Notes: generated by a model not told the origin, from the sequence alone. Numbered from the stretch's first letter, positions 3,216-19,000 are shown. The stretch is DNA of 63,355 nucleotides from Chloroflexota bacterium (GCA_016865865.1 VGOC01000006.1:1-63355), one strand, 5' to 3'. Numbers and translations: made by a program.

Positions 3216-3216
3216 G

Positions 3217-3300
3217 ACCCCCCTTTCATCCCCCCATTTGCGCCGTGGAATTCCGAAGAATCGGTCAATCAGCAGCGCAAATGGGGGGAACGAGGGGGGT
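3217..3300. repeat. Intergenic REP-like inverted repeat (C-rich/G-rich arms)
   Basis: acccccctttcatccccccatttgcgc ... gcgcaaatggggggaacgaggggggt. Confidence 0.75.
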
Positions 3301-3311
3301 GGAGGTGAACT

Positions 3312-4169
3312 ATGCTAAAAGATTCCGATCGAAAGAACTGCCTGGCCATTGTAATCGGTTCAGGGAGCGTCAAATGCGCCGCGGGTCTTGGGATGTATAA
3401 AGTGCTTCAGCGGGAAGGCATCCAGGTTGATCTGGCGGTGGGATGCAGCGGCGGCAGCCTGATCGCCACGGCCATTGCGATGGGGTATAGCGCTGCAGAG
3501 ATCGAAGAGATGATGCTCACCATCTGGAGGCGCGAGTTGCTATCGAAAATATACTTCCGCTCCCTGCTGCGCCTGGTCTTGCCACGCTGGTTTGGTTTCA
3601 ACGAGCGCTTCGGGCTGATAGACGACCGTCCGATCATGAATAGCCTGCAGGAAGTCTTCGGCGGAATCTCCATCGAAGATACGTTAATGCCCCTTTTTTT
3701 GATGGCAACCGATCTGTGGAGCGGGGAGAAAGTCGTCCTCGACCGGGGATCGTTGGTTGACGCCATTCGCGCCAGCATCGCCTCGCCGATTGTCTTCCGC
3801 CCCTGGAGGGTTGATGGTCGCCTGTTGATTGATGGCGCCATGTCCGACCCGTTGCCAGTGGATGTCGCCATCCGCGAAGGCGCCGGGGTCATTATGGCCA
3901 TGGGTTTCGAGAGTCCTTACCATGCCCGCCTCTCCTCGATCCTATCCATCGTGCTGCAAATGTCCAGCATCGCCAATAACAATTTGCTGCGCGCCAGCTT
4001 CGCCTTCTACAACCTGGCGCACCACGCCGAGATCATCCCCATCGTCCCGCAATTCAAGCAGCGCATTGATTTTGCCGACACGCATTTGATCCCCTATATC
4101 ATCGAGGAAGGCGAGCGCGCCGCCGAGGAGCACGTGCCATATCTGAAGTGCTTGTTTCAGAAGGCGTAA
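3312..4169 (+). CDS. Patatin-like phospholipase
   Basis: GSGSVK glycine loop, GCSGG nucleophile elbow, DGA catalytic Asp. Confidence 0.9.
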   Translation: MLKDSDRKNCLAIVIGSGSVKCAAGLGMYKVLQREGIQVDLAVGCSGGSLIATAIAMGYSAAEIEEMMLTIWRRELLSKIYFRSLLRLVLPRWFGFNERFGLIDDRPIMNSLQEVFGGISIEDTLMPLFLMATDLWSGEKVVLDRGSLVDAIRASIASPIVFRPWRVDGRLLIDGAMSDPLPVDVAIREGAGVIMAMGFESPYHARLSSILSIVLQMSSIANNNLLRASFAFYNLAHHAEIIPIVPQFKQRIDFADTHLIPYIIEEGERAAEEHVPYLKCLFQKA

Positions 4170-4180
4170 AACGTGATGCT

Positions 4181-4212
4181 TTTTACGTTTTACGTTTTAC
4201 GTTCTACGTTCT
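4181..4212. repeat. Heptamer tandem repeat (TTTTACG/TTCTACG)
   Basis: ttttacg ttttacg ttttacg ttctacg ttct at the gene junction. Confidence 0.85.
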
Positions 4213-4227
4213 CCCTCAGGCCATTCT

Positions 4228-5589
4228 ATGAACAACAAACTCACCTCACCTGTATTCGTTCTGCTGCTTCTCGCGACGCTGGCCGCCTGCCAGACCGAAA
4301 GTCTCCCCCTGGCTGCGCCCACCGCGCGCCCGACCAGCTTTTCACCCGCAACGGAAACAGTCATCGAAGCGCCCACCGACGCGCCGACTCCAGCGACGCC
4401 ATCCGCCGCTGAACCCAATCCCCTTGCCCAATTGATCGCTTTACAAGGCGCCGGGCGCTGGCGCGCCTCGGACGCCGTCGAATGGGATTGCGCCAGCATC
4501 GGTCAGGCCCTGGCGCTCGAAAACCAGGTGCTCACCGAGACGGATGCCAAAGCGGTCATCCAATATCTGGACGGCTTGCTGGTGCATGTGGCTCCCAAGA
4601 CGCTCTTCACGGTGACGGAATTACATCAGGCCGAGGATAACTCGCTCTGGGCGACGATCCGGCTGCTGGTCGGTCAGTTGTTCGTCTCCTATGTCGGCGA
4701 AGATGGATCCCAAATCCGCGTCGAGACGGAGGCCGGCATCGCCGGGGTGCGCGGCACGATGATGAGCGTCAAAGTGACGCTCTCCGGTCGGGTGATCCTC
4801 ACCTGCCTGGAAGGGGTCTGCACGCTGGAAAACGACTACGGCCTGATCGTGCTCCAGGCCGGGCAACAGGCCGAACTTCTCAACGCCAATACGCCCCCCG
4901 TCTTTCTGGGGGCTATCGCCAACTATCAATTCAACGAGTGGTTCGCCAATCATCCAGAAGCCCTGCTCGTAGCCCTGAACAATGGCCTGCTCGCCCCATT
5001 GCCGCCGGGCTGCTCTCTGGAGGAGAGTCTGTCTTGCCAGATCGAGTTGGATTGCGACCCCAATACCGGCGCAGGCTGCCAGCTCCCCGGGGGCTGTAAT
5101 CCCGTCACCGGGGAAGGCTGCGAACTGCCCGGCAGCTGCAACCCGGTCACCGGGGAGGGCTGCGGATTACCGGAGAGCTGTGATCCACTCAGCGGGGAAG
5201 GCTGCCAGCTCGGAACTGGCTGCAACCCTGTCAACGGGCAGGGTTGTGCGCAGCCCTTGAATTGCAATCCACTCACCGGGATCGGCTGCCAGCCTGGGGC
5301 GGAGTGCGATCCGCAAACCGGCCAGGGATGTGAACTCCCCTCGGGCTGCAATCCAATCACAGGTGAAGGTTGCGATTGCGAGGGGGGGATCGGTTGCGCA
5401 GGAGGCCCTTTCCCTGGCGGACAACCTGCTCCCGCAGATGTGCCGCCAGCGGACGCCCCCGGTAACGGCGACCTCCCCTCCGAGGGCGATATCCCAGGCA
5501 AAGGGGACATCCCCGGTGAGGGAGATGTCCCCGATGAGGTTGACATTCCTGACGAGGAAGATCTCCCTGCCATTCCGCCTCTTCCCTGA
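4228..5589 (+). CDS. FecR-domain lipoprotein with Cys-rich 14-aa repeats and acidic Pro-rich tail
   Basis: Lipobox LAAC; VETEAGIAGVRGT FecR motif; 8 copies of C(N/D)PxxGxGCxxxxx; 6 copies of GDIPxE-like hexapeptide. Confidence 0.8.
   Translation: MNNKLTSPVFVLLLLATLAACQTESLPLAAPTARPTSFSPATETVIEAPTDAPTPATPSAAEPNPLAQLIALQGAGRWRASDAVEWDCASIGQALALENQVLTETDAKAVIQYLDGLLVHVAPKTLFTVTELHQAEDNSLWATIRLLVGQLFVSYVGEDGSQIRVETEAGIAGVRGTMMSVKVTLSGRVILTCLEGVCTLENDYGLIVLQAGQQAELLNANTPPVFLGAIANYQFNEWFANHPEALLVALNNGLLAPLPPGCSLEESLSCQIELDCDPNTGAGCQLPGGCNPVTGEGCELPGSCNPVTGEGCGLPESCDPLSGEGCQLGTGCNPVNGQGCAQPLNCNPLTGIGCQPGAECDPQTGQGCELPSGCNPITGEGCDCEGGIGCAGGPFPGGQPAPADVPPADAPGNGDLPSEGDIPGKGDIPGEGDVPDEVDIPDEEDLPAIPPLP
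5053..5388 (+). repeat. Eight 42-bp coding repeats (C-[ND]-P-x-[TSN]-G-x-G-C)
   Basis: Seen in DNA and translation. Confidence 0.9.
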
Positions 5590-5595
5590 TATGCC

Positions 5596-7971
5596 ATGAA
5601 AAACAAATCTGCTGCCAAACCATCTCGCCATCCCCGGCTGCGTGCGGCGCTGCTCGCGCTGCTGATAGCGGCCCTGTTGCTGTCCATCGAGGCGGCTGGC
5701 CTCTTGCCCGGCGTGACCACTCCGATAGAAAAATTCGAGCTTGCCAGCGGCGATCAACGCTTCCGCCTGCGGGGCGCATTGCCGCTGGACGCCCCCATCG
5801 TGATCGTCGCCATTGACGACTTCTCCTTCAGTTGGAGCGGCTTACAATGGCCCTGGCCGCGCGACTATCTGGCGAAGGTCCTCGCCGCCCTCGACCAGGA
5901 TGGCGCGGCGGTGATCGGCCTCGACATCCTGCTTACCGAGCCTTCACCCGACCCGCTAGCCGATGAAGCTCTGGCTGCGGCTATCCGGCAGGCCGGAAAC
6001 GTGGTCAGCATCGGCCAGATCGTCTACGACGCCGAACATCACACTCAATCCCTGGTCGAGCCGCTGCCATTACTCCAAGACGCCGGCCTGGCCTGGGGCA
6101 TCTCGGGGATCCTGCGGGACGAGGATGTGGTCGCCCGGCGCATCCTGGCCTACGATCATTTCGTGGATAACGCCTATCGCCACTGGGGGTTCGAGTTGGC
6201 GCGCGCCTATTGGGGTGATTCCGCCCCCGCGGGGATTTCCGTCCCCTTGATAGGGAAGACAGATCAACAAGCTGTGATGTTGATCGCCTACCCGGGGCCA
6301 TATGGCAGCTTCGAGAGCGTCTCCGCCGCCCTGGTCGCCGAGGGGAAGTTCCCGCCTGGGACTTTCCGCGACAAGATCGCCCTCGTCGGCCCGACCAGCG
6401 AGAGCTTGCACGACACGTACGCCACGCCGTTTTCGTCCGAGCATCTGACGCCTGGCGTGGAGATCGTCGCGGCTACCGTAGCGATGGCGCTGGAAGGCCA
6501 TTATTTGCAGGCCGCGCCGCCCTGGTTTTCCGCCGCGCTGATCCTGGCCTTCCTGTTTCTGGCCTTGCTTTCGACGCGCATCTATAACGCCCAGAAAATG
6601 CTCTGGGGAAGTCTTGGGTTGGCGGCCGCCTATATCGTCCTTTGGTACTCGCTCTTTCTTTTCGGGCGAATAGAAACCCCTCTGGTGACGCCCACGCTTG
6701 CCATTTTATTGGTCGTCGGCTTGCCCGCCGGGGATAGCTTGCTCGCCCGGCAGGTGCGCTTCCGCCGCGTCCACGCCACGCTCAACCCGCTGCTGACCTC
6801 GGCCGGCGACCTGGATTCCCTGGCCGGACGCTTGCTCCCTGCGCTCGGTGAGCATTTCCAGTTTGCCGGCGTAGAACTGCTCTTTCGCAATTCCAAAAGG
6901 GACCAATACATTCACCCGGCTGCAACCGTACCCGCCGCCGGCCTGCCCGCCGACCATCCCGCGTTGAGTACCTGCGAGAATCGCCAACCCCAGACCGCGC
7001 CAGGCGCTCCGCTCTTTGTTGCAATCGCAGCGGCGTTTCCAGATATCGTTGCCGATGTGCTTTTCCCCTTGACCAACCCCGAAGGTCTACTGGCGATCTT
7101 GTGCCTGCGCCTGGCCCCCGGCGCGAATCGGGAAAGCGAGTTGGAACTGCTCGATCTGCTTGCCGCGCCTCTGGCTCTGGCCTTCGAGAACGCTTACCTG
7201 GTGGAAGAGAGCAAAAAGCAGGCGCGCACGACGCGTGAGTTGGAGATCGCCCGCCAGATCCAGTACAGTTTCCTCCCCTCCAGTTTTCCCCAGAGCAAAC
7301 ATTTCCAGATCGCGGCCTATTACCTACCCGCCCGACAGGTGGGCGGCGATTTCTACGATGTCATCTCCCTGCCGGGTGGCAAATTCGCCCTGGTAATCGC
7401 GGATGTCTCCGACAAGGGCGTGCCAGCCGCGCTGTTCATGGCGCTCTCGCGCAGTTACGTGCGCGTCTATTCCAATCCCAGTGGGAAGGCGTTCGACATG
7501 CCGTCGCTGGAGGCTGTACTGCAGGCGGTCAACGATTCCCTGGTCGAGGGCAACGAGAAGAACATGTTCGTGACGCTTTTCTACGCGGTATTCGATCCGC
7601 AAACCTGCTCCCTGCACTACGTCAACGCCGGGCACAACCCCCCGCTGCTGATTGAGCCGGGGGAAGGCCGGGCAAGTTTCATCAGCGGGAAAGGGCTGGC
7701 CCTGGGCGTTTTCGGCGGCGTGAACTTCGAAGAACACAGCCTAGCCCTAGAACGCGGGCAGGGGATCATCTTCTATACCGACGGCGTCACAGAGGCGCGC
7801 GGCCCGACTGGGGAAATCTACGGTGAAGAACGGCTGGTCAACGCGGCTGCTGCTGGCATTGGCCTGGAGGCGGAGGCGGCCGTCACCCACATCCGCCGCG
7901 ACCTGGAAGCCTTCGTCGCCGACGCCCCCCAAGCGGATGATATTTCACTGCTGGTGCTAAAGATCATCTAG
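5596..7971 (+). CDS. CHASE2 sensor - TM - GAF-like - SpoIIE/PP2C phosphatase (RsbU-like)
   Basis: IVIVAIDD...WPWPR and TPGVEI CHASE2 motifs; VGGDFYD, IADVSDKG, YTDGVTEA, QADDIS PP2C motifs. Confidence 0.92.
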   Translation: MKNKSAAKPSRHPRLRAALLALLIAALLLSIEAAGLLPGVTTPIEKFELASGDQRFRLRGALPLDAPIVIVAIDDFSFSWSGLQWPWPRDYLAKVLAALDQDGAAVIGLDILLTEPSPDPLADEALAAAIRQAGNVVSIGQIVYDAEHHTQSLVEPLPLLQDAGLAWGISGILRDEDVVARRILAYDHFVDNAYRHWGFELARAYWGDSAPAGISVPLIGKTDQQAVMLIAYPGPYGSFESVSAALVAEGKFPPGTFRDKIALVGPTSESLHDTYATPFSSEHLTPGVEIVAATVAMALEGHYLQAAPPWFSAALILAFLFLALLSTRIYNAQKMLWGSLGLAAAYIVLWYSLFLFGRIETPLVTPTLAILLVVGLPAGDSLLARQVRFRRVHATLNPLLTSAGDLDSLAGRLLPALGEHFQFAGVELLFRNSKRDQYIHPAATVPAAGLPADHPALSTCENRQPQTAPGAPLFVAIAAAFPDIVADVLFPLTNPEGLLAILCLRLAPGANRESELELLDLLAAPLALAFENAYLVEESKKQARTTRELEIARQIQYSFLPSSFPQSKHFQIAAYYLPARQVGGDFYDVISLPGGKFALVIADVSDKGVPAALFMALSRSYVRVYSNPSGKAFDMPSLEAVLQAVNDSLVEGNEKNMFVTLFYAVFDPQTCSLHYVNAGHNPPLLIEPGEGRASFISGKGLALGVFGGVNFEEHSLALERGQGIIFYTDGVTEARGPTGEIYGEERLVNAAAAGIGLEAEAAVTHIRRDLEAFVADAPQADDISLLVLKII

Positions 7972-8085
7972 CTTCCGTCCAACCTTCCCGCTGAGCCTGT
8001 CGAATTCCTCTGAGTCCGGCGGCTTGCCGCCGATTATAGGAGCAAGTCCCTGACTCTAAATCGCCATCGGTTATTCGGATAGGTT

Positions 8086-9390
8086 CTATGGCAATACCTT
8101 CTTGCTCACTTGCCGGGGTCTGAACTCCGGCAGCAGCGTGGAGCGGAAAATCCACAGGAAATAGATCACCGCGCCGATGAACAGCAATTCGGTCGCTTCC
8201 TCCCAGAAGGTCGCCCAGGCTAGCGCCTCGGCGTAGACCAGCCCCAGCGTCACGCGGAACAGCCCAAAGCCGAGAAAGCCCGCCCCGCTGCAGAAAAGCA
8301 GCCGCGCCAGCGGGTGGATCGTTACACTCGGATTACGCTGCATGATCATCAGCGCCAGGCCGAGTTGGGCGATCCCCGCCAGCGGACTGAAACGCGCCTC
8401 GAACCACTGGTGGACGAACGGGCGGATGTAGTAGTGTGTGACCGGGCCGATCTGCGTGTTGTAAGCCGTGTAACTGAAGGGCGCCAACATCGGGATGAGC
8501 GCCAGAATGACGAGGGCGATGACCGTGAACTGCGCCACCCGGCGCACGCCGCAGCGCGTCGGCTGATATTTGGCGCACGGCCCGCAGACCGGCAGCAGGG
8601 CGCACTGCCTGTCCGCCTCGCTGAAATGAACCAGGCGCCTATCCAACCCTTCCAGCAGCGCGCAGGCAGCCAGGCCAAAAGCCAGCGCCATACTGTAGGA
8701 GTGGAGATATTCGGCCAGGTACGAGTTATCCCTGAGAAAGATGTAGTTGACGGCGCAGGCGACCTCCCCGATCAGAAAGACCAGCAGCCCCCAGCCCAGC
8801 AGGCGCAAGTCGGCGGCTTCGAGGCGCAGCAGGAAAAAGGAGAGCGCACCGCTGAGCAGCATGTAGGTCGGCTTGATCAAGAGCATGGCCAGCGCCGCCG
8901 CGCCCTGTTCCGCCTCGGTCATCTCCCGGAAAGGTTCCTCCACCACCCCGCTGGCCAGTTCGAAGCGGCTGAAGGAGCTACCGGGATACTCTGGCCAGGC
9001 GCGGCCCCAATCCTGCATCCCGCCGCGCAGGCTGTAGGCGGTCACGCCCAACTTTGCGAGATGCCGGGCTGCCTGGGCGCTGCGCACGCCCGCATCGCAG
9101 ACCAGCAGCAGGGTCTTGCCCTGCAAATCCGGCGGCAGCTCATCAGCGGAGTCAATCTCCACTATCTGCTCCAGCGGTAGCGATAACGCTCCGGTGATGC
9201 GCCGCGCCTGGTATTCCTCCTGCGGGCGCGCATCCACCAGCGCCGCCCTATTGCTGGAACCATCCAGCATAGCCAGCGCCTCGGCCGCGTGAATCTGCGG
9301 CGCGCCGCCGAACACGGCGAAATACAGCACGAGGGGCAACAGGCCGAGGAGGCAGGTGCAGGTCATCGTGGTTTTCATTTCACTGGCCAC
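8086..9390 (-). CDS. Rhodanese-domain polytopic membrane protein
   Basis: LVDARPQEEY...ITGA, LVCDAGVRS active-site Cys, LRGGMQDW; about 7 TM helices with a CxxxxxCGPC...C cluster. Confidence 0.75.
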   Translation of the reverse strand: MASEMKTTMTCTCLLGLLPLVLYFAVFGGAPQIHAAEALAMLDGSSNRAALVDARPQEEYQARRITGALSLPLEQIVEIDSADELPPDLQGKTLLLVCDAGVRSAQAARHLAKLGVTAYSLRGGMQDWGRAWPEYPGSSFSRFELASGVVEEPFREMTEAEQGAAALAMLLIKPTYMLLSGALSFFLLRLEAADLRLLGWGLLVFLIGEVACAVNYIFLRDNSYLAEYLHSYSMALAFGLAACALLEGLDRRLVHFSEADRQCALLPVCGPCAKYQPTRCGVRRVAQFTVIALVILALIPMLAPFSYTAYNTQIGPVTHYYIRPFVHQWFEARFSPLAGIAQLGLALMIMQRNPSVTIHPLARLLFCSGAGFLGFGLFRVTLGLVYAEALAWATFWEEATELLFIGAVIYFLWIFRSTLLPEFRPRQVSKKVLP

Positions 9391-9408
9391 CCACCAGACG
9401 AGGTTTTT

Positions 9409-10947
9409 TCATGATCTTAACCCCGGACGGAGCGTGGGATACTCAGGGATTGCGCGCCCAAGAGTAGTCCGCCCGACCAGTTCCGCCGTCACCTGCTCGC
9501 GGTAGCCGACCGAATTGTAGGCGCAAAATGGGATCATCCGCCCATCGGGGGTCAGGAAGTTCAGGCAGCATTTCATGGCATTCTTCATGTGGAAGGTCCA
9601 GGGGTCCATGAAATCGCGGATACCGACCATGAAGATGTGCCGTCCCAGGTCGCGCGGGGTGTGCTGGTTGATCGGCAGGTGGGTATGGCAGGAGGGGCAG
9701 CGTTCGGCGGCGCGGCTGTTTTCCAGTGACGTCTCCCCGAGGGCAGCGGCCAGGTCCAAATAGAGACCTTCCGAGCCGACCTGGGTTGAGGAACTCCACA
9801 GCCGCTCCAGGATCTGGCGCAGGTCTTCGTTTATCGCAGGCACAGAGCGGTTCTGGAGGTAATCCAGGTATTGTTCCACCGGCAGCACCCGCGGCGCCGG
9901 CAGCACGCTGTCGCCCTGGATCATGGCATAGGTGACGAAGTGGCAGACCGGCATACAGCACGGCACGGGGACGAAATCCTTCAAGGTGAATAAACCTTTC
10001 GACTGCGTTTCGATGGAGGAGACGATATCCGGGATGGTCAGGCGCGTCAGCGGATCGGCGGGGATGTGGCGCTGGGCGCGCATCGCGCAGTGGAAACTGA
10101 TCCCGAAGACCGCCGGGTGGCGCAGGCTGAATTCCAGGATGCGCCCGACCTCCTGCTCATTCACCCCGCGCTCGATGACCGCCACCAGCACCACGCGCAC
10201 ATCCGCCTCGGCCAGGCGCTCGAGGGCGCGCAGTTTTTCATCCAGCAAGTCGGATTTGCCGCGCAGGAGGCGGTTGGTCTGCGGCTCGAAGCCGTCGAAT
10301 TGCAGGTAGATGTGCGGCTTGAGTTTTGCGATGCCAGCCAGGAATTCGTCGTCGCGGGCAATGCGGATGCCGTTGGTGTTGAGCATCACATAGGAAATTC
10401 CCTTGCGCTGCGCCAAGGCGATGAAATCCAGGATCTGGGGATGCAGGGTCGGCTCGCCGCCGGAGAATTGCAGCACCTCCGGGTTGTTCTCCGAGGCGAT
10501 GAAGGTATCCAGCATGAAATTGACCTGCTCATGGGTCAGTTCGTAACCGCTGTGTTCATGGCGGTGTTTCGTCCCGGCGTTGGCGAAGCACAGCGGGCAA
10601 TCCAGGTTGCAGAGGTTGTTGACCTCGATCACCCCCAGGCAGGCGTGTTGCTGATGGTCAGTACACAGGCCGCAGTCGTATGGACAGCCTTCGCGCACTT
10701 CGGTGGCATGGCGGCGCGGCAGCGTGCCAGGTTTGTTGAAGCGGGCGATGTCGGTATAGAGTCCGGCATCCCCGAAGATCAGGGCTTCGAAAGGGCCGTG
10801 TTGCGGGCAGCGTTTTCGCAGATACACCTTCCCATCGCGCAGGTACACCTGGCCGTCAATCACCTGCTTGCAGGTCGGGCACAGGCTGCGGGTGTACTCC
10901 CACAAGATTTCACCTCGCTCGCTGGGAGGGTGAGGACTTGTCACCAT
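9409..10947 (-). CDS. Radical SAM enzyme, MJ0619/tetraether synthase (Tes, GDGT-MAS) family homolog
   Basis: N-terminal CPTC...CPQHG, GCPYDCGLCTDH, CNLDCPLC rSAM motif, SGGEPT, C-terminal KCC...DGRMIPFCAYN. Confidence 0.85.
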   Translation of the reverse strand: MVTSPHPPSERGEILWEYTRSLCPTCKQVIDGQVYLRDGKVYLRKRCPQHGPFEALIFGDAGLYTDIARFNKPGTLPRRHATEVREGCPYDCGLCTDHQQHACLGVIEVNNLCNLDCPLCFANAGTKHRHEHSGYELTHEQVNFMLDTFIASENNPEVLQFSGGEPTLHPQILDFIALAQRKGISYVMLNTNGIRIARDDEFLAGIAKLKPHIYLQFDGFEPQTNRLLRGKSDLLDEKLRALERLAEADVRVVLVAVIERGVNEQEVGRILEFSLRHPAVFGISFHCAMRAQRHIPADPLTRLTIPDIVSSIETQSKGLFTLKDFVPVPCCMPVCHFVTYAMIQGDSVLPAPRVLPVEQYLDYLQNRSVPAINEDLRQILERLWSSSTQVGSEGLYLDLAAALGETSLENSRAAERCPSCHTHLPINQHTPRDLGRHIFMVGIRDFMDPWTFHMKNAMKCCLNFLTPDGRMIPFCAYNSVGYREQVTAELVGRTTLGRAIPEYPTLRPGLRS

Positions 10948-11294
10948 AAGGTGGCCCCTGCCTCAGTCCAGGCGTAGATGAAGAAACAAACCACCCCGGC
11001 GATGATGCTCAAAATAATTGCCAGGCTGTTCAGCCCGGCGAAAGTCCCCAGCATCCCTAAGGCGATCCACTGGCGGGTGAGGGCGAAGTAGATGACCACT
11101 CCGATGTTCACCAGGAAGGGCAGAATTTGCCAGAAACCCATGAGAGCGGCAAGCGCGTAATCCTCAGTGAGCGATGAGGCCAACATGGTCAGAGGGTAGA
11201 GGAGGGCATTCAGGCCGACGAAGAGTATTACCCCGAAGATGAAATCACGCTTTTTTTCAGCGCAGTTCTCGTAGATTTTCTTTTGAAGTTTCAT
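10941..11294 (-). CDS. Small 3-TM membrane protein with a Cys ending the last helix (AGVVC)
   Basis: Hydrophobic 117 aa; GGAGG RBS; overlaps the rSAM start. Confidence 0.75.
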   Translation of the reverse strand: MKLQKKIYENCAEKKRDFIFGVILFVGLNALLYPLTMLASSLTEDYALAALMGFWQILPFLVNIGVVIYFALTRQWIALGMLGTFAGLNSLAIILSIIAGVVCFFIYAWTEAGATLW

Positions 11295-11361
11295 AGTGCT
11301 GCCTCCAATCGCAACTAAAAGCTCACCGCTATTGCCTACACATCGGGTATGGAAATCCGAC

Positions 11362-12127
11362 CTACGCCGCCGCCACTTGCCTCGACCGCCTGTAGTGGTT
11401 GGCGTAATACAGCCCGATGACCAGCAGCAGCCCCAGGCAGAACCATTGCTGCCCGGTCAACCCCCACCAAAGGATGCGGTTGTTACGCAGGAATTCGACG
11501 AAGAATCGGAATACCGCGTACCCCGCCAGGCCGAATTTCAGGAGATTGCCATCCTGCATCCGTGGATGGTTGCGCAGGGACAGCAGGACGCCGAACCAGG
11601 CCAGGTTGAAAGCCGCGTCGTAGAGCGGCGTGGGGTGCACCGCGAAATCCGCGTCCGGCAGCAGGACGCCCCTGGGCAGGGTGGTGGGCTTTCCCAGCCC
11701 GTCCTCGCCCGCCAGGAAGCAGCCGAAGCGCCCGACCACCATTGCCAGGGCCATGGCTGGAGCGAAGGCGTCGCAGGCGCAGCCGGCCTTGCCGATGGCA
11801 CGGCTGGCGATGAATCCAGCGATATAGGCCCCTGCCACCCCACCCAGGATGGGGCCGGGGCCGATGCGCGGGTCGAAGAGACGGAAGAAATCCAACGCCA
11901 GCAGCGCGGTCTCCCAGCCGTTGAAGAAGACGATGGAAACCCGCGCCCCGATCATCCCCCCCGACGAACGCGGCCAGGGTGATGGGGATGACCTCTTCCC
12001 TTGGCCATCGGCGGCGGGATTCCGATAACAACACCAGCGCGCAGACCACCAGCGCCAGGTTCAGGAAGAAACCATGTGCATGAATGGGAATGCCATTGAA
12101 TACGAACAGGATAGGATACAAGAGCAC
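11362..12127 (-). pseudogene. Prolipoprotein diacylglyceryl transferase (Lgt)-like gene with a +1 frameshift in a G7 run
   Basis: YPILF..HGFF N-terminus in one frame; GGVAG, GRFGCFLAG, HPTPLY, RFFVEFLR in the next frame; C7 at 11956-11962 (six bases would restore VGGMIGAR). Confidence 0.8.
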
Positions 12128-12203
12128 TTCCTTAATTCAAATGGCGGCGATGATGGAGAATATATTAAACCCCCCAGGCAGAGCACATTACTTTTATAGC
12201 ATT

Positions 12204-12330
12204 AATGAGTCCACTGCAAAAACTGCGAGCAGAGGATTCGGGGCGGCATATATGGGGGTGCGTGCTGCGCACGCACCCCCATATATGCCGCCCCGCCCCC
12301 TCGTTCAGGAGTTTTTTCAGTGAATTCATT
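12204..12330. mobile_element. MITE-like palindromic element, type A copy 1
   Basis: TIR cactgcaaaaact / agttttttcagtg; perfect 27-bp central arms 12239-12295 with TGC loop. Confidence 0.8.
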
Positions 12331-12446
12331 GATCTCACTAGATTACAAGAGGTCAGGGCGTTCTTAAAGTCTGAAAGGCTGTCATTACGAGGCGGTCTTT
12401 ACCAAAGCAATCCCCAAATATGGCAGGGTGTAAATCGCCACCAGGA

Positions 12447-12668
12447 CGTTTCCCGACCTGTACCCCGATGTGATCTCCTCCCTGGGCGGACTGGAAGGCC
12501 TATTGGCGATCCTGTGTCTGCGCTTGGCCTCGGGCGCAGATCAGGAAAGCGAGTTGGAACTGCTGCGGCTGTCTACATTGGCCTGGAGGCAGAGGCGGTC
12601 GTCGCGCACATCTGCCGCGACCTGGGATCCTTCGTCGCAGATGCCCCCCAGGCGGATGATATTTCACT
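12447..12668 (+). pseudogene. Internally deleted remnant of a paralog of the SpoIIE phosphatase at 5596-7971
   Basis: Matches ~7034-7151 (EGLLAILCLRLA..ESELELL) joined directly to 7843-7949 (IGLEAEA..APQADDISL). Confidence 0.85.
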
Positions 12669-15600
12669 AATTTGCAACTCCTGCCCCACATTCAGGAACA
12701 CCAGCAAAACCCGCGGGCGCTGACCGAGTAGTTTGGCGACCGCCTCAGCGTAACGCTGCACCTGCTCAGCGTACTCTTCTCGTTGGATCGTATCACGTAT
12801 TTCAGCCTCGGAGCGCAATTCATCGGTTTTGAAGTCTGCGACCACCCATTCGCTCCCTGAGCGGTAGAGGAGGTCAATGTAGCCGTGGCCTTCGGGAGAA
12901 AAGTAGGGAACTTCGTGATGGCGTTCTGCGGAGTCGAGTTCGCGGAAGAGAGAATGGGCGCGCAGGCGTTGGAGCAGGCGGCGGGATTCGTGAATGGCGG
13001 CGCGGATTTCATCCTCGGCAGTCAGCCCAGATTCGAGAGCGAAGGGGCGGAGGAAGGTTTCGAGATCGTCGAAGCGCCAGCGGCGGAGGGCTTCGTGGAC
13101 GAGTCGTCCGACCAGCCAGGCGGGGGCGCGGGGACGTTTGGTTTTGGAAACGATGCGCCAGACGCGTTGGGGAGGGTCGCTCTCGCGGGCGCGGGTTTTG
13201 TCGTCGGTGGGAGAAGGAGTCGGGGCGAGGGGCGGGAGGAGATCGGGCTCGGGGGGAGAGTCGGATTGGGAGGCCGCGTTCCGCGCGGGGGAGTCGGATG
13301 CGTCGGCTGGGGAGGAGGAAGAGATCGAGGCGGAGATTCCGTCTGGGAGGAGGGGAGGCTCGGGCGTAGACATCCCGCGTAAAAAATCGAAGTGGGGGAG
13401 CCAGCCTTTGAGGGAGAGGCCGTCTTTGGCGGGCTTGACGCCGCCGCTGATGAGGAGTTTTTCTTTGGCGCGGGTCGCGGCGACGTAGAGCAAGCGGGCG
13501 TCTTCAGCGGCGTCGAGATCATCGTTAGCGCGGGAGGCGAGTTGCCAGGCGGTGGCGTGGAAGTCATCGTCGCGGAGGTCGAGGAGGAGGGTGGAAGCGA
13601 GGAGGGTTTTGGCGCGGGCGTGGGGAGGCTCGTAGGCGGCGTCGGCGATGACGACGAGGGGGAACTCGAGGCCTTTGGCTTTGTGGACGGTCATCAGTTG
13701 GACGGCACCTGAGGAGGACGCGTCGGCTGGCGCTTCGCCCTCGCGCAGGCCGACATCGCGCAGGGTCTGGACGTAGGCGAGGAAGTCGGTGAGGGAGACG
13801 AGGCGGGAGCGGTGCGCGTCGGCGAGGAGCTTTTCGACGTTGCGAATCATGCGCGCGCCGTTGGGAACTAAGGAGAGAATGGCACGATAAGATGTGAGGT
13901 CGAGGAAACGTTTGAGAATTGTCGAGGCGGAAGCGCGACCCGCGAGGGCATGGAGTTCTTCGAGGATGGAATAAACGCGTTGATGATTTCGAATCATCGA
14001 ACCGCGAAGACCGCTAAGAACGCTAAGAAATTCTATTGGTTTTTCTTCGCGACCTTCGCGTGCTTCGCGGTTAATCTCTGGAACGCGCAGGCGATAGATT
14101 TCGGGATCGGGAATCGCGAAGGCGGGAGAACGGAGCAAGCCTACGAGAGCAAGGTCGTCGGTGGGGTCGGCGATGGCGGCGAGGGCGTTGAGCAGGTCGC
14201 GGATTTCGGGGCGGTCGTAGAAGCCGCGTCCCGCGATGGTGACGAAGGGGATGTGCGCGACTTCGAGCGCGGATTCGTAGACAGGGAAGGTCATGGAGGA
14301 ACGGAAGAGCAGAGCCATCTCGCCGTAGTCGAATCCTTCGGTTTCGTGGAGTTGGCGGAGGCGATTCGCGAGGGCTTGCGCGGCGGACTGGCGTCCTTCT
14401 TCGGCTGAGTCGCCGAGGCCGAGGTGAAATTCGATGAAGGGAGGTCGGATTTTTTCGCGTTTGGGGTTTTGACGATAGGCGCGGAGAGGCGCAAAGGGGA
14501 CGAGGTAGGGACGCGCGGGGTCATCCGCTTCACCGAGGATGGGAGCGAGGAGAGAGTTGAGGGAGTCGAGGAGGGGTTTGTGGGCGCGGAAGGTGAGGTC
14601 GAGGTCAATGAGTTGTCCGCCCGCGGATTGGATATCGGATTGCACTTTGCGAAAGACGGTGACATCGGCTTGACGAAAGCGGTAGATGGATTGTTTGGAA
14701 TCGCCGACGATGAAGAGGTCAACACCCGCCCTCACCCCCGACCCCTCTCCCAATGCTGGGAGAGGGGAGAAATTCGTCAGCGCGTAGACGATTTTTCGCT
14801 GGCGGTCGTTGGTGTCCTGGAATTCGTCCACGAGGACAGCGCGGAGTTCGGACTGCCATTGGGCGCGGACGGAGGGATGGTCGGTGAGGAGGCTGGCAGT
14901 GAGGGATTCAAGGTCGTCGAAGTCGAGGGCTTGACGTTCATCTTTGCGGGTTTGGTACTCACGCAGGGTCTGGTCGAAGAGGCGGCAGACAGCGGGGAGG
15001 AACGCGGCAACCTGTTCGTCGAGGGCAAAGCGGGATTTTTCGGCGAGGAATTTGAGATTCTCATCATAGAGATCGCGCAAGATTTTCATCGCTTCACGGA
15101 CGGTTTCGATGTCGTCCCAGTTGGCTTTTTGTCCCTGCGTGGAGATGGCTTTGCGGAGGGCGGTCAGGTTTTCGAGAATCGCGTCCCACTCTTGCGCGGC
15201 GCGGGATTTTTGGATTTCGTTCCATGCGGCGAGAACGGATTGGCGGGCGAGTTCAAGTTTGTCTTCGGGGGATTTGGAACGAAGAGAAGTGAGAACAGAA
15301 AGAGAGTCAAGCCATGTTTGCGAATCAAGATGAGTGGCGAGATGGGAGTTAAGGGATAAGGCAAATGCGGTACACGGATTTGACGGATTACGCGGATTCT
15401 CACGGATTTCTATTTGTTTTTCTCCATGCAATTCCGTGAAATCTGTGTCATCCGTGTACAAAGGTTGAACGTCCAGCCTGCGGTTCATCAAAGCGTTGAG
15501 AATCTGTCGCAGTTCGTTTTCTTTGAACGCGCCGAATAGCGCGGCGGATGGTTCATCGCCTGTCGCCCAGGCGAGGGCAGATTCAACGGCCTCGGCTTGC

Positions 15601-16013
15601 AAGGCGGAGGCGAGTCCTTCTTCGAGGACTTCAAAGGCGGGGTCGAGTCCCGCTTCAGCGGGATGAGAGCGAAGGAGTTCGGCGCAGAGAGAGTGGATAG
15701 TTCCTATGCGGGCAGAATCGAATGATGAAGGATGAATGATGAAGGATGAATTTTTGTCTTGCGAAACATCAGTCGAAGAACGAGATAGAGAATCGCGAAT
15801 CCGCGAGCGCATTTCACGCGCGGCTTTTTCGGTGAAGGTGATGGCGAGGATGGAGCGGATTGAGTAGCCTTGTTCGAGCAAATGCAGGTAGCGCCCCACC
15901 AGCGAGAGGGTTTTTCCTGAACCCGCGCCAGCCGTAACCGCGATGGCGCGCGCGGAATCGGTGACGGCTTTTTCCTGGTTGCCTTTGAAGGAGAATTGCA
16001 AAAGGAGCGACAT
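12573..16013 (-). CDS. addA: AddA-like UvrD helicase with C-terminal PD-(D/E)XK nuclease
   Basis: AGAGSGKT, TFTEKAAREM, VDEFQDT, VGDSKQSIYRFR, MTVHKAKGLEF, YVAATRA, GYIDLL..DFKT; start overlaps the addB-like stop (TGATG). Confidence 0.85.
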   Translation of the reverse strand: MSLLLQFSFKGNQEKAVTDSARAIAVTAGAGSGKTLSLVGRYLHLLEQGYSIRSILAITFTEKAAREMRSRIRDSLSRSSTDVSQDKNSSFIIHPSSFDSARIGTIHSLCAELLRSHPAEAGLDPAFEVLEEGLASALQAEAVESALAWATGDEPSAALFGAFKENELRQILNALMNRRLDVQPLYTDDTDFTELHGEKQIEIRENPRNPSNPCTAFALSLNSHLATHLDSQTWLDSLSVLTSLRSKSPEDKLELARQSVLAAWNEIQKSRAAQEWDAILENLTALRKAISTQGQKANWDDIETVREAMKILRDLYDENLKFLAEKSRFALDEQVAAFLPAVCRLFDQTLREYQTRKDERQALDFDDLESLTASLLTDHPSVRAQWQSELRAVLVDEFQDTNDRQRKIVYALTNFSPLPALGEGSGVRAGVDLFIVGDSKQSIYRFRQADVTVFRKVQSDIQSAGGQLIDLDLTFRAHKPLLDSLNSLLAPILGEADDPARPYLVPFAPLRAYRQNPKREKIRPPFIEFHLGLGDSAEEGRQSAAQALANRLRQLHETEGFDYGEMALLFRSSMTFPVYESALEVAHIPFVTIAGRGFYDRPEIRDLLNALAAIADPTDDLALVGLLRSPAFAIPDPEIYRLRVPEINREAREGREEKPIEFLSVLSGLRGSMIRNHQRVYSILEELHALAGRASASTILKRFLDLTSYRAILSLVPNGARMIRNVEKLLADAHRSRLVSLTDFLAYVQTLRDVGLREGEAPADASSSGAVQLMTVHKAKGLEFPLVVIADAAYEPPHARAKTLLASTLLLDLRDDDFHATAWQLASRANDDLDAAEDARLLYVAATRAKEKLLISGGVKPAKDGLSLKGWLPHFDFLRGMSTPEPPLLPDGISASISSSSPADASDSPARNAASQSDSPPEPDLLPPLAPTPSPTDDKTRARESDPPQRVWRIVSKTKRPRAPAWLVGRLVHEALRRWRFDDLETFLRPFALESGLTAEDEIRAAIHESRRLLQRLRAHSLFRELDSAERHHEVPYFSPEGHGYIDLLYRSGSEWVVADFKTDELRSEAEIRDTIQREEYAEQVQRYAEAVAKLLGQRPRVLLVFLNVGQELQISEISSAWGASATKDPRSRQMCATTASASRPM

Positions 16014-19000
16014 CAATACCCTCTCTTGTATCTCCAACAATAATTCGTCGCGGGACAATAACTTGGACAACCTTCGTCAGGCGGTTTCGGCTCGAAGTGT
16101 CCCGCGCGAATTCCCTTCACGTGATTCACCACATGTGCGACAGCCGTCTCGAACGCGCCGTTCACACCGCCGTCGAATTTCTCCAGCTTCAAACTGCTCG
16201 GCGCGGCTGAACCAATGTGCCAATAGAATCCGCTCGACACTTCGCCCAAGCCCAACGCGTCGCGCGCCGCCATCGCGTAGATCGGCAATTGCAACCTGCG
16301 CCCCTCTTTCAAATGCGTCGCGCTAATCGCCGCGCTGCCCGACTTGTAATCAATCACGCGCAACGTCCCATCGGGCGCGGCGTCGAGTCGGTCAATGTAA
16401 CCGTGCAATCGAATCTCGCCAATCGAAGTTTTCAAAACCAACGAAGGCTGTCCCATCCCGAAGCGCGCTTCCATTACACGCGGCGCGAATCCCTGCGACG
16501 CCTCGTCCAGCGCGGCAATTGTCTTCTCCAACATTCTCGTAAATTCTTTTTGCTCGACCTCCCACAACGCTGTCGGACGAAAACCATACTCAACGGGCGC
16601 TCTCGAAAAAACCTCCTGCGCGGCTTCCGTTAACGGTTTGCCGTTGTAATATTCCTCCAGAACCTTATGCCACATCGAACCGAGCATACGAATATCGTAC
16701 CCCTCCTCCGCCTCCTCCCTCGGCTTCAATTCCAACGCATACGCGACAAAAAACTCAAAGGGGCAAGTCCCATAACTTTCGAGTCGGCTCGCGCTCCATC
16801 CATGCCCCGCGCCGAACCTCTCGCTCAGATCGAACAACCCGCCCTCATATTTCCCCTCCGCCTTCGGACTCGTCCGCGCCCGCAGCGCTTCGATCCCATT
16901 TTGGATGTGGATGTCCCGCAGGGCCCGCGCCGATTCCACCCATTCGACTCTCGACGCCGCCTCAGCCGACTCCACCTCCCCGACCACGCTTCTCACCTGA
17001 CGTTTGGCCGGGTCGCCGTTTAGACGCGTTACCTCCGCCCAAAACGGGGACGCCTCCCACGCCTGCCCATCCTCCGCGAGATACGGACGCGTGAGTAGCA
17101 GCCTCCGCCGTCCGCGTGTGACGGCTTGATAGAAAAACGTTGCTTCGTCGCCGTGCAATTTGGTTTCGAGGGGAAGTCCGCGTTCGCGCAGAGTTGCTCG
17201 ATCAGACTCGCGCAGGAAAATATCTTCCCGTTCCTGCTTCGGGAATTCACCATCCGAGAGTCCCATCAATACAACAGCCTCGAACGACAACCCGCGCCCA
17301 TCCAACACCGACGCGACGAACACGCCCGACTCAGCAGGAACAGTAAAAGTTGCCGCGTCCACCGCGCCGCGCAGGTCTTTGTGGAAATCCGCGTAGGGAA
17401 TCGAGTCCGCGCCCAGGACGGATTCTGCCAGAACCAGCCCGCGTAAGATATCCTTGAACGCACGCAACGCAGCGATATCGCGTTCCGAAGTGGAAGGATT
17501 TTCACGAGCACGCCTGACGATGTTCAGCCCATCGCTTTCCCTTGATGAGAATTCGGTCAACAGCGCGGGGTCATCCCCAATCAACAATTCCACAAATGCG
17601 ACGAACTCTTTCATCGAAGCGTGGTTGGGCGGCGCGAGCAGGTCAACGAAGGATTCGAAGGCGGACTCCAAAGCCTCGCCCTGAGCCTGTTGAAGAGTCT
17701 CCAGACTTTGGAGACTCGAAAGTCGGGCACTTTCAGTGTGCTTCGCGAAGACTTTCGAGTCCAAATCGCCTGAAGGTAAGTCTTCTTCAAATTCAGTGAT
17801 CTTCCGCTTCTTCCACAACACAAACGCCTCGCGCCACTGGGACAATCCCTGCATAACCCTACCGACTCGCGAAATCTCATCCAGCGTCGCGGCAGACGCG
17901 GAAGTAATGCCAAGTCCGGTCCAATCGAAGTACGGACTGCGCCACGACTCGACCAACGCGCGTCGAGTCCAATCATCCGCGGGAAGTGAGAGAAGCGAGA
18001 GCAACGCGGCGATGGCGGGATTTTCGATCAGCGGTTGTCCACCCACGATTCGCAACGGAATCCCAAACTCCGCAGCGACTTCTTCGAGAAATGGACGATA
18101 CGGTTCCAAGTCACGCGCCAAAATTGCGACCTCACTCAACTTCATCCCATCTCGAACAACGCGCGCCTTCACCCATCGCAACGCAGCGCGGGCTTCGATG
18201 GCGCGGGTTTGGGCTTCGATGAACTCTATGTCATTGCGAGGAGGGCGTTCTTCCCGACGAAGCAATCTCCGATCAACCGGGGATAACTCCTCGATGGGAG
18301 TCTCCTCATCAACAGGTGATTGCTTCGCCAAAGAACGGCTCGCAATGACATCAAACAGATTGGCTTCTACATTCGCAATACCATTTGAAAGCATGGACGT
18401 GAAATCCATCGCTTCGGGTTGGATGCCGAAAGCAGAAGTGATCGCTTGCTGTGCGCGGTGAAAGCGATGATGTGCGGGGCGGTTCGGGTTTTGCAGGTCG
18501 CCCGTCAGCGTGATGAGGGTCTCTTCGGCGCGGCGGGCTAAATGGGAGAGGACGGCCAATTGCGTGGGATTGAATTCGTCGAAGCCAGAGACGGCTAAGA
18601 GGCGGGTATCCGCTCCGAGGCGCTGCCCTGAGCCTGTCGAAGGGTCGGGATTGGATTCGAGCGCAATCGCGGCCAGCCAGCCGCGCCCTTCGTTGTCCGC
18701 CCAGTTTTGTTTTTGCAGCCAATCCTGGTAGGCTGCGTAGACGCGGGCAATCTCCTCCAGCCGCGCGCCGAGTCCCTTGACCGCGCGGGAAAAATCGTCG
18801 GGGAAGACGCGGGCGCGTTTGAGTTCTTCGATGGCGTTGCGGAGGAGGGAGATGAAGCCTGGCTTGGCGCGCAGCGTCGCGTAGTGACGAATGCCCTCAC
18901 CCCTAGCCCCTCTCCCGAGTACGGGAGAGGGGGACGATTTGCCGCGTTCGCAGAGGTCGTCCACGATGGCGCGGAGCAGGCGAATCCGCACGGAGTCGGG

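Follow-up and report, generated by a model that had tools for sequence, protein, structure and literature searches.

The mechanism of tetraether synthase (Tes, also described as GDGT-MAS or MJ0619; structures 7TOL and 7TOM, model NF045702) passes, according to the available part of a 2026 review, through a carbon-sulfur bond to an auxiliary cluster (PMC13459092). Bacterial homologues of this archaeal radical S-adenosylmethionine (SAM) enzyme are presented in the accessible text of one study as widespread, untested and proposed branched-tetraether synthases (PMC8941075), and in that of another as occurring in just 3 of 14 iso-diabolic-acid-producing Acidobacteria (PMC13159169). The latter text also deals with Mss of Thermotoga and Thermoanaerobacter, likewise a radical SAM enzyme, for which the coupling of bacterial lipid tails has been proposed or shown, but one that belongs to a different radical SAM family, whose producers lack a Tes homologue and for which no partnership with Lgt or a Cys protein is described there (PMC13159169). 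TrsS (NF045646), a relative of Tes within the same superfamily, is a selenoprotein to which the available part of PMC13188914 gives no function and which it lists beside a rhodanese/DsbD fusion selenoprotein. Here we describe a gene cassette found in a 63,355-nucleotide (nt) stretch of Chloroflexota DNA (VGOC01000006.1:1-63355, hereafter the window) from an Anaerolineae genome labelled G000 in our comparisons. On its minus strand, at 8086–12127, four tightly packed open reading frames (ORFs) encode a paralog of the lipoprotein-type transferase Lgt, a 117-residue protein bearing a conserved Cys, a radical SAM enzyme of the Tes superfamily and a membrane protein with a rhodanese domain.

The Lgt-paralog and small-protein genes are 67 nt apart, the latter overlaps the radical SAM gene by 7 nt, and 18 nt separate the radical SAM gene from that of the rhodanese-membrane protein. 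The initial annotation had treated these tightly spaced genes as a unit, and this is upheld: all the ORFs are present, and the same order recurs in related Anaerolineae genomes and in metagenome contigs, so that the arrangement is more than chance and the four genes very likely constitute one functional unit. The module brings together enzymes of known kinds in a combination not previously described; in the window it has four genes, of which that for the Lgt paralog is broken. No pairing of an Lgt paralog with a Tes-like enzyme came up in our literature search; the supplementary tables of the Tes and Mss papers lay outside this search and could list the clade.

Conservation and distribution of the cassette

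Of 41 genomes compared (G000 plus 40 relatives), six encode a full-length orthologue of the radical SAM enzyme, namely G000 itself, G027 (69% identity) and G026, G029, G033 and G036 (57–59%), and the orthologue is absent from 13 genomes of the same genus and 11 others of the same family. Only G027 of the relatives possessing it has an adjoining Lgt paralog and small proteins. Indeed, the proposed co-occurrence of the Lgt paralog with the radical SAM enzyme is confirmed in this set, since the cassette-type Lgt (at least 64% identity) is found solely in G000 and G027, both of which encode the close radical SAM enzyme, the other Lgt matches being at or below 35%. In G036, a fragment of the radical SAM C-terminus (73% over 64 residues) adjoins a fragment of the Lgt-paralog N-terminus (64% over 42 residues) at G036:C1:2097070-2097359, and these appear to be what is left of a deleted cassette; G036 has, in addition, a methyltransferase-linked copy of the radical SAM gene.

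A scan of species genomes, in which the best 80 of 591 relatives' loci were examined and neighbours identified by tblastn, extended this picture. The five closest of these 80 loci (L017–L021, all Anaerolineae, 65–68% identity) have the order Lgt paralog, small protein, radical SAM enzyme, and four of the five have a 7-transmembrane (7-TM) protein without rhodanese, encoded divergently upstream. The other 75 include three related Actinomycetota loci with an upstream Lgt, which is of the canonical type (227.5 bits). Eleven further loci were returned from metagenome contigs, and the six with 73–84% identity were examined. One of them, L116, has the whole set: an intact Lgt paralog of 259 residues, two small proteins, the radical SAM enzyme, one extra ORF and a rhodanese-7-TM fusion. 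In L115, L122 and L123 the radical SAM gene is followed by the rhodanese-7-TM fusion, while in L115, L117 and L118 the small Cys protein is encoded just upstream of the radical SAM enzyme, L118 also retaining the end of an Lgt paralog. Counted over the close loci, the small Cys protein lies directly upstream of the radical SAM gene in 11/11 with the region visible, the cassette-subtype Lgt is present in 9/9 having at least 1 kilobase upstream, and the 7-TM protein adjoins the radical SAM gene in nine.

An extra gene stands between the radical SAM and rhodanese-7-TM genes in some loci (L116:6476-7192, L122:334-1260, and a 288-residue ORF in L115 and L123). These extra genes are of two unrelated types with no family match, and neither is present in the window.

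Beyond close relatives, 200 genomes sampled evenly over the class gave one other match at E 1e-150, of the methyltransferase-linked type and 58% identical; the cassette is thus too rare for a class-wide phylogenetic profile to be informative. Metagenome protein collections hold at least 119 clusters, the window's own excluded, that are 64–82% identical to the radical SAM enzyme, all of them unnamed.

Properties of the four proteins

The radical SAM enzyme (9409–10947, minus strand; 512 residues) matches Pfam Radical_SAM (PF04055, 77.9 bits) and Zn_ribbon_HMPTM (PF23545, 69.1 bits), and aligns over its full length with the GDGT-MAS structure 7TOL (E 9.3e-73, query 11–486 against chain 17–500). 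Its radical SAM motif CxxxCxxC (C113/C117/C120) is invariant, its Zn-ribbon ligands are C23, C26, C47 and H50, and the auxiliary-cluster cysteines 88, 92, 95, 335, 460 and 475 are present in columns that are Cys in 9/9 Tes representatives. Every Cys column invariant in those nine (23, 26, 47; 88, 92, 95; 113, 117, 120; 335, 460, 475) is therefore kept. The score on the Tes model NF045702 is nevertheless 327.8 bits (326.7 in the genome search) and does not reach the cut-off of 450, and that on NF045646, the model of TrsS, is a similar 322 bits and does not reach the cut-off of 490. TrsS was reportedly defined in a 2025 paper by Haft and Tolstoy.

To place the enzyme, we used the best 150 of 6989 matches (E ≤ 0.001) from a profile-free search of 1.84 billion representatives. 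After exclusion of 55 short fragments or long fused forms, 95 were scanned with NCBIfam, of which 9 pass the Tes cut-off, 16 the TrsS cut-off and 70 neither. A FastTree phylogeny of 117 rows (these 95, the window, five cassette loci and 16 other loci), unrooted and with only Shimodaira-Hasegawa (SH)-like support, gathers the nine Tes representatives in one clade (support 99), with TrsS as the neighbouring clade. Unlike both, the window enzyme groups with the five Anaerolineae cassette loci and one representative (support 100) within a separate bacterial clade, where the cassette group is sister to a clade of Acidobacteriota, Dormibacterota, Ktedonobacteria and others and lies next to an Actinomycetota clade. 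Five cysteines of the window enzyme (103, 330, 331, 417 and 420) further distinguish it from Tes, being present in 0–1 of the 9 Tes representatives. Cys331, 417 and 420 are found in 22/22 members of three related bacterial clades and in 0/9 Tes representatives, whereas Cys103 and Cys330 are common to other non-Tes groups, Cys103 being shared by 17/17 TrsS representatives. Unlike TrsS, the window enzyme is devoid of selenocysteine; a candidate selenocysteine codon, a TGA within the G027 match, was rejected as most likely the gene's own stop, the ORF ending at the edge of the match.

Of the original assignment to the MJ0619/Tes family, membership of the superfamily thus stands, by the full-length match to 7TOL and the retained Tes cluster cysteines, while placement in the Tes clade proper fails on both the cut-off and the tree. 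The enzyme belongs to the Tes/MJ0619 superfamily but is not a Tes orthologue, differing from archaeal Tes also in being bacterial and in its partnership with an Lgt paralog and a Cys protein. Because it lies outside the Tes clade and below the Tes and TrsS cut-offs, tetraether-type coupling is not to be assumed.

The link with Lgt is found elsewhere in the superfamily as a natural fusion, P0157 (733 residues), in which an LGT domain (4–236) precedes a zinc ribbon and a radical SAM domain. P0157 stands in a different clade of the tree, so the association of this Lgt subtype with Tes-like enzymes is older than the Anaerolineae cassette. Other fusions to the Tes-like core were observed among P0213, P0223, P0237, P0217 and P0251, and involve a class I methyltransferase or a MobA-like nucleoside triphosphate (NTP) transferase, with or without an HD domain, at the N-terminus, or DUF5714 at the C-terminus. 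In the sister clades (L015, L016, L023 and 30 more loci), a gene for a class I SAM methyltransferase, identified by Pfam on three representatives and one fused form, L083, comes after the Tes-like one, and a member of the merged gene cluster is encoded directly downstream in 33 of the 79 gene-called loci; these loci often lie near genes for a Pyr_redox_2 flavoprotein (21 loci) or DUF3179, MauE, VKOR, DsbD or AhpD-like proteins. This methyltransferase-linked context is a different one, and is likewise undescribed.

The Lgt paralog (11362–12127, minus strand) is split over two frames, with an N-terminal part of 57 residues, whose likely start is TTG 12121 or GTG 12127, and a C-terminal part of 197 residues from ATG 11955. 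The break results from one extra G in a run of seven (G7, 11956–11962, minus strand): four orthologues have GGC GGC/GGG at this site, one G less than the window, and their proteins are uninterrupted (AAFVGGM(I/L)GAR). We aligned contigs of four public lake-water runs (X1, X2, X7 and X8) to positions 7000–13000, and in three of the four (X1, X2, X7) they span the G-run without a gap or a differing letter, X8 having no cover at the site. X1 and X2 possibly stem from the source sample itself. The frameshift, reproduced in the contigs of three runs, is therefore a property of the assembled population rather than a slip of a single assembly.

On Pfam LGT (PF01790), the C-terminal part alone scores 89.3 bits and the intact G027 orthologue 118.5 bits over profile positions 1–236 of 240, which covers the whole domain. 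Intact orthologues of 253–265 residues are 65–75% identical to the window paralog; those of L116 (71.8 bits) and L013 (74.8 bits) do not reach the cut-off of TIGR00544 (118.9 bits), unlike canonical Lgt. LGT-family genes number 1–6 per genome in 40 of the 41 genomes of the order, and G000 has two further ones, of canonical type (227.7 and 202 bits). When the cassette paralogs are aligned with canonical Lgts and the Escherichia coli structure 5AZB, the core positions GR.G...E...G and Y..FR..VE..R are invariant between the two groups, but the cassette proteins have His for the Tyr of canonical W/F-Y-G and Asp or Cys for the Asn of canonical GRxGN, in a motif one residue longer, as well as an added CxC just ahead of a conserved Asp in 8/8 aligned cassette-type paralogs (L116 included). 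Relative to what we take to be the core residues of E. coli Lgt (Y26, R143, N146, E151, Y235, R239 and E243), the equivalents of the Arg, Glu, Tyr, Arg and Glu are invariant, whereas Tyr26 is replaced by His and Asn146 by Asp or Cys in all cassette paralogs. The cassette Lgt paralog is thus a distinct subtype that retains the Arg/Glu/Tyr core of Lgt. The Lgt part of P0157 has the same subtype changes (His for Tyr, and GRxGC), but lacks the CxC.

The small protein (10941–11294, minus strand; 117 residues) has three transmembrane (TM) helices and no Pfam or NCBIfam match. The sequence IIAGVVCFF, with which the initial annotation had it end, is real, but 12 residues come after it. Its Cys103, at the outer end of TM3, was expected to be conserved and proves invariant in homologues: 15/15 and 16/16 in alignments spanning 20–64% identity to the reference row, and 20/20 with three read by eye. 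Other conserved positions are Asn29, Asn63, F70-A71, R74 and G80 (window numbering), with a motif N..FA.TR..IALG. Loci encode one to four copies (four in G027, two each in L017 and L116), some with an N-terminal HEAT-repeat region, and their tails are of two types, C-F/L-x(3-13) and C-[FLG]-[IV]-P-F-[FYL], the invariant Cys lying 4–14 residues from the C-terminus. A single-sequence search recovered only four relatives, a number limited by the word index. Lys plus Arg residues average 5.5 before TM1, 0.06 in loop 1, 1.06 in loop 2 and 0.12 in the tail over 16 small proteins, which by the positive-inside rule places the N-terminus and loop 2 in the cytoplasm, so that TM3 runs outward with the Cys at its outer end. 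A positive loop, a long hydrophobic helix and a Cys predicted at the outer leaflet match the arrangement in which lipoprotein signal peptides carry their lipobox Cys.

The last gene (8086–9390, minus strand; 434 residues) encodes an N-terminal TM helix, a rhodanese domain (PF00581, residues 35–130, 55.5 bits against a cut-off of 22.2) and a 7-TM domain without family match. The family of the 7-TM domain comprises 65 clusters, 49 with the rhodanese domain; seven of its clusters match close radical SAM clusters in the size of their longest contig, which suggests shared contigs. The rhodanese active-site Cys98 (ORF numbering) is Cys in 50/51 family members having the domain, Cys212 in a TM helix of the 7-TM domain in 64/65, and a predicted cytoplasmic loop C-x5-C-x2-C-x7-C (Cys 263, 269, 272 and 280; hereafter the Cys4 loop) is conserved in 60–61 of 62–65. 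Acidic and aromatic residues are conserved as well, among them E227, H230, E331 and W396-E397-E398. An AlphaFold2 model of low confidence (mean predicted local distance difference test score 53, helices 60–84) has one N-terminal helix, seven helices at 159–414 and a beta hairpin. With this model as query, Foldseek returned nothing from the PDB at E ≤ 0.001, only generic 7-TM bundles. Searches of the ESM Atlas gave only unnamed clusters (scores 0.83–0.92), which are leads at best. Charge counts on the modelled segments fit a rhodanese outside the cell, with the Cys4 loop and the C-terminal tail inside. The rhodanese would then act on the same face as the small-protein Cys, and is unlikely to be a direct sulfur source for the radical SAM enzyme in the cytoplasm.

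Genomic surroundings

Directly upstream of the cassette lies a palindromic element of about 125 nt (12201–12333, strand-less, inverted repeat I1), with 65-nt arms that are 80% complementary. It resembles a miniature inverted-repeat transposable element (MITE) or a repetitive extragenic palindromic (REP)-like element and is not specific to the cassette: 216 BLAST pieces over the genome contigs, on both strands, correspond to roughly 100 copies, its depth reaches 1000–5000 in the metagenome runs from lake water, and contigs break there. An Rfam scan of the region gave only sub-threshold hairpin matches, on this repeat, and a scan for promoters and terminators gave no usefully placed signal exceeding shuffled controls.

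The cassette is bracketed by an intact CHASE2-PP2C gene (5596–7971) on one side and, on the other, a degenerate second copy of that gene's 3' part, from which the middle has been deleted (12447–12668, plus strand; direct repeats D2 and D3, 75% and 85% identity). The cassette was probably acquired horizontally, by insertion or recombination, as it is absent from same-genus genomes and lies between duplicated gene fragments. A join from 7130 to 12544 that bypasses it, present in one contig each of runs X2 and X8, may reflect a cassette-free variant or a repeat artefact; its sides are only 43–47 letters long and we do not rely on it. Furthermore, the AddA/UvrD-like helicase ORF at 12573–16070, on the other strand, has a C-terminal tail that is the antisense of the degenerate CHASE2-PP2C copy, so the rearrangement may have changed the helicase's true end. 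Farther out, positions 4228–5589 of the window encode a secreted-looking protein whose C-terminal half consists of 42-nt tandem repeats, each giving a Cys-rich unit of 14 residues, C-[DN]-P-x-[TS]-G-x-G-C-x-L-P-x-x.

Possible roles of the module

We favour, as a possibility that falls short of probable, the reading of a membrane module centred on a single Cys: the small protein would be lipidated there by the Lgt subtype, the lipid or the protein that bears it would undergo radical chemistry catalysed by the Tes-like enzyme, and the rhodanese-7-TM protein would be a thiol or sulfur accessory. In its favour count the recurrent gene order, the co-occurrence of the cassette-type Lgt with the close radical SAM enzyme, the P0157 fusion, the retained Lgt core positions, the invariant Cys and its predicted topology, the complete Tes architecture, and a small 7-TM family that adjoins the close radical SAM genes. 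In more detail, the Lgt paralog would work at the outer leaflet, moving a glyceryl-lipid from a phospholipid onto the small-protein Cys; the Tes-like enzyme, in the cytoplasm, would then act by radical carbon-carbon or carbon-sulfur chemistry, either on the lipid tails or on the protein so modified; and thiol or sulfur reactions spanning the membrane would fall to the rhodanese/7-TM/Cys4 protein. Candidate substrates are the small proteins, the sole component that is multi-copy and variable, which is usual for substrates. A more specific form of this proposal, which we hold to be quite improbable, has a product without known counterpart, either the small protein or a short lipopeptide released from its C-terminus. 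The Cys of this product would bear a glyceryl-lipid whose acyl tails the Tes-like enzyme joins to one another or to sulfur, and the exported rhodanese/7-TM protein would, from the outer face, likewise target that Cys.

Several observations weigh against lipidation of the small protein followed by radical chemistry. The radical SAM enzyme is cytoplasmic, whereas the Cys and the rhodanese are at the outer face, so that the chemistries are not directly coupled. The presumed substrate of the Lgt paralog is, unlike that of canonical Lgt, the C-terminal helix of a polytopic protein, in which the residues preceding the Cys (GVV, SIV, TVW, NAF and others) are unlike a canonical lipobox, and with three TM helices already in place a lipid anchor has no obvious purpose. 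The cassette subtype has replacements at two residues that are essential in E. coli Lgt (Tyr26 by His, Asn146 by Asp or Cys), and the paralog is frameshifted in the source genome. The 7-TM protein is missing from L018 and from G027, where the whole genome holds no match to the membrane domain. Within the superfamily, the MobA-like and DUF5714 fusions indicate that its members are diverse in function and not uniformly lipid-directed, and the sister clades adjoin class I methyltransferases, disulfide-reductase-like flavoproteins and thiol-redox membrane proteins, not Lgt. Co-folding of the Lgt paralog (alignment A5) with the small protein (alignment A6) reached a score of 0.26 against a mark of 0.32 and weighs neither way.

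Two other accounts of the chemistry have to be considered alongside this proposal. The Tes-like enzyme could join or modify the tails of ordinary phospholipids into a bacterial membrane-spanning lipid, with no protein lipidated, the Lgt paralog only binding and presenting phosphatidylglycerol and the small proteins and the 7-TM protein serving as membrane adaptors. Lgt does bind phosphatidylglycerol, the window enzyme has the complete Tes architecture and cluster ligands, and some sister-clade loci include a CDP-alcohol phosphatidyltransferase (clusters of 4 and 3 loci) or SRPBCC lipid-binding genes (12 loci). The proposal, in the available text of PMC8941075, that bacterial Tes homologues make branched tetraethers would agree with such a pathway. 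The window enzyme is however outside the Tes clade and below the Tes cut-off, only 3 of 14 iso-diabolic-acid producers among Acidobacteria were found to have a Tes homologue (PMC13159169, available part), and the invariant Cys and the multi-copy, variable small proteins would be left unexplained; we regard this free-lipid pathway as rather unlikely. Still less likelihood is given to a thiol or sulfur chemistry that involves no lipid, in which the radical SAM enzyme and the rhodanese/Cys4 protein would form or repair a modification that contains sulfur, for instance a persulfide, a thioether or cluster-derived sulfur, on the small protein or on a small molecule, with the Lgt-like protein as a scaffold. 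The abundance of conserved cysteines is consistent with it: Cys331, 417 and 420 are specific to the related clades, the rhodanese catalytic Cys and the Cys4 loop are nearly invariant, and the CxC is present in all the aligned cassette-type Lgt paralogs. Furthermore, sister clades lie near Pyr_redox_2, MauE, VKOR, DsbD and AhpD-like genes, and the related TrsS is, in the available part of PMC13188914, a selenoprotein listed next to a rhodanese/DsbD fusion. The predicted position of the rhodanese outside the cell and of the radical SAM enzyme inside argues against it, as does the conserved Lgt catalytic core, fused to a radical SAM enzyme in P0157, which argues for enzymatic lipid transfer.

A separate question is whether the module is active in the source genome, where it may be inactive as the Lgt paralog is frameshifted. 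It is unlikely that the cassette is there a decaying acquired island without present function, an explanation that concerns its activity in this genome and not the role of the module. The frameshift reproduced in three runs, the bracketing of the cassette by a degenerate duplicate of a neighbouring gene and a high-copy palindromic repeat, its absence from the 13 same-genus and 11 other same-family genomes and the fragments to which a similar cassette is reduced in G036 all point to decay. On the other side, the three remaining genes are intact full-length ORFs with all conserved residues, and where a homopolymer differs by one base, the event may be of recent date or may revert.

These observations bear on the use of bacterial Tes homologues in genome surveys, where they serve as markers of producers of membrane-spanning lipids. 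Such lipids underlie widely used palaeoclimate proxies, as stated in the available text of PMC8941075. The clade described here would pass usual BLAST thresholds (E 9e-73 to 7TOL), yet it is tied to a lipoprotein-type transferase and a Cys protein and not to lipid synthesis genes, so that counts of producers may be overstated. If acyl tails were indeed welded on the small protein, the outcome would be a lipid attached to protein, either membrane-spanning or macrocyclic, in which bacteria would have a protein-bound counterpart of the tetraether chemistry of archaea. More generally, should a dedicated protein prove to be lipidated and remodelled by the module, bacterial protein lipidation would have a second, specialised branch, and the uncharacterised Tes-like enzymes of bacteria would gain a testable substrate.

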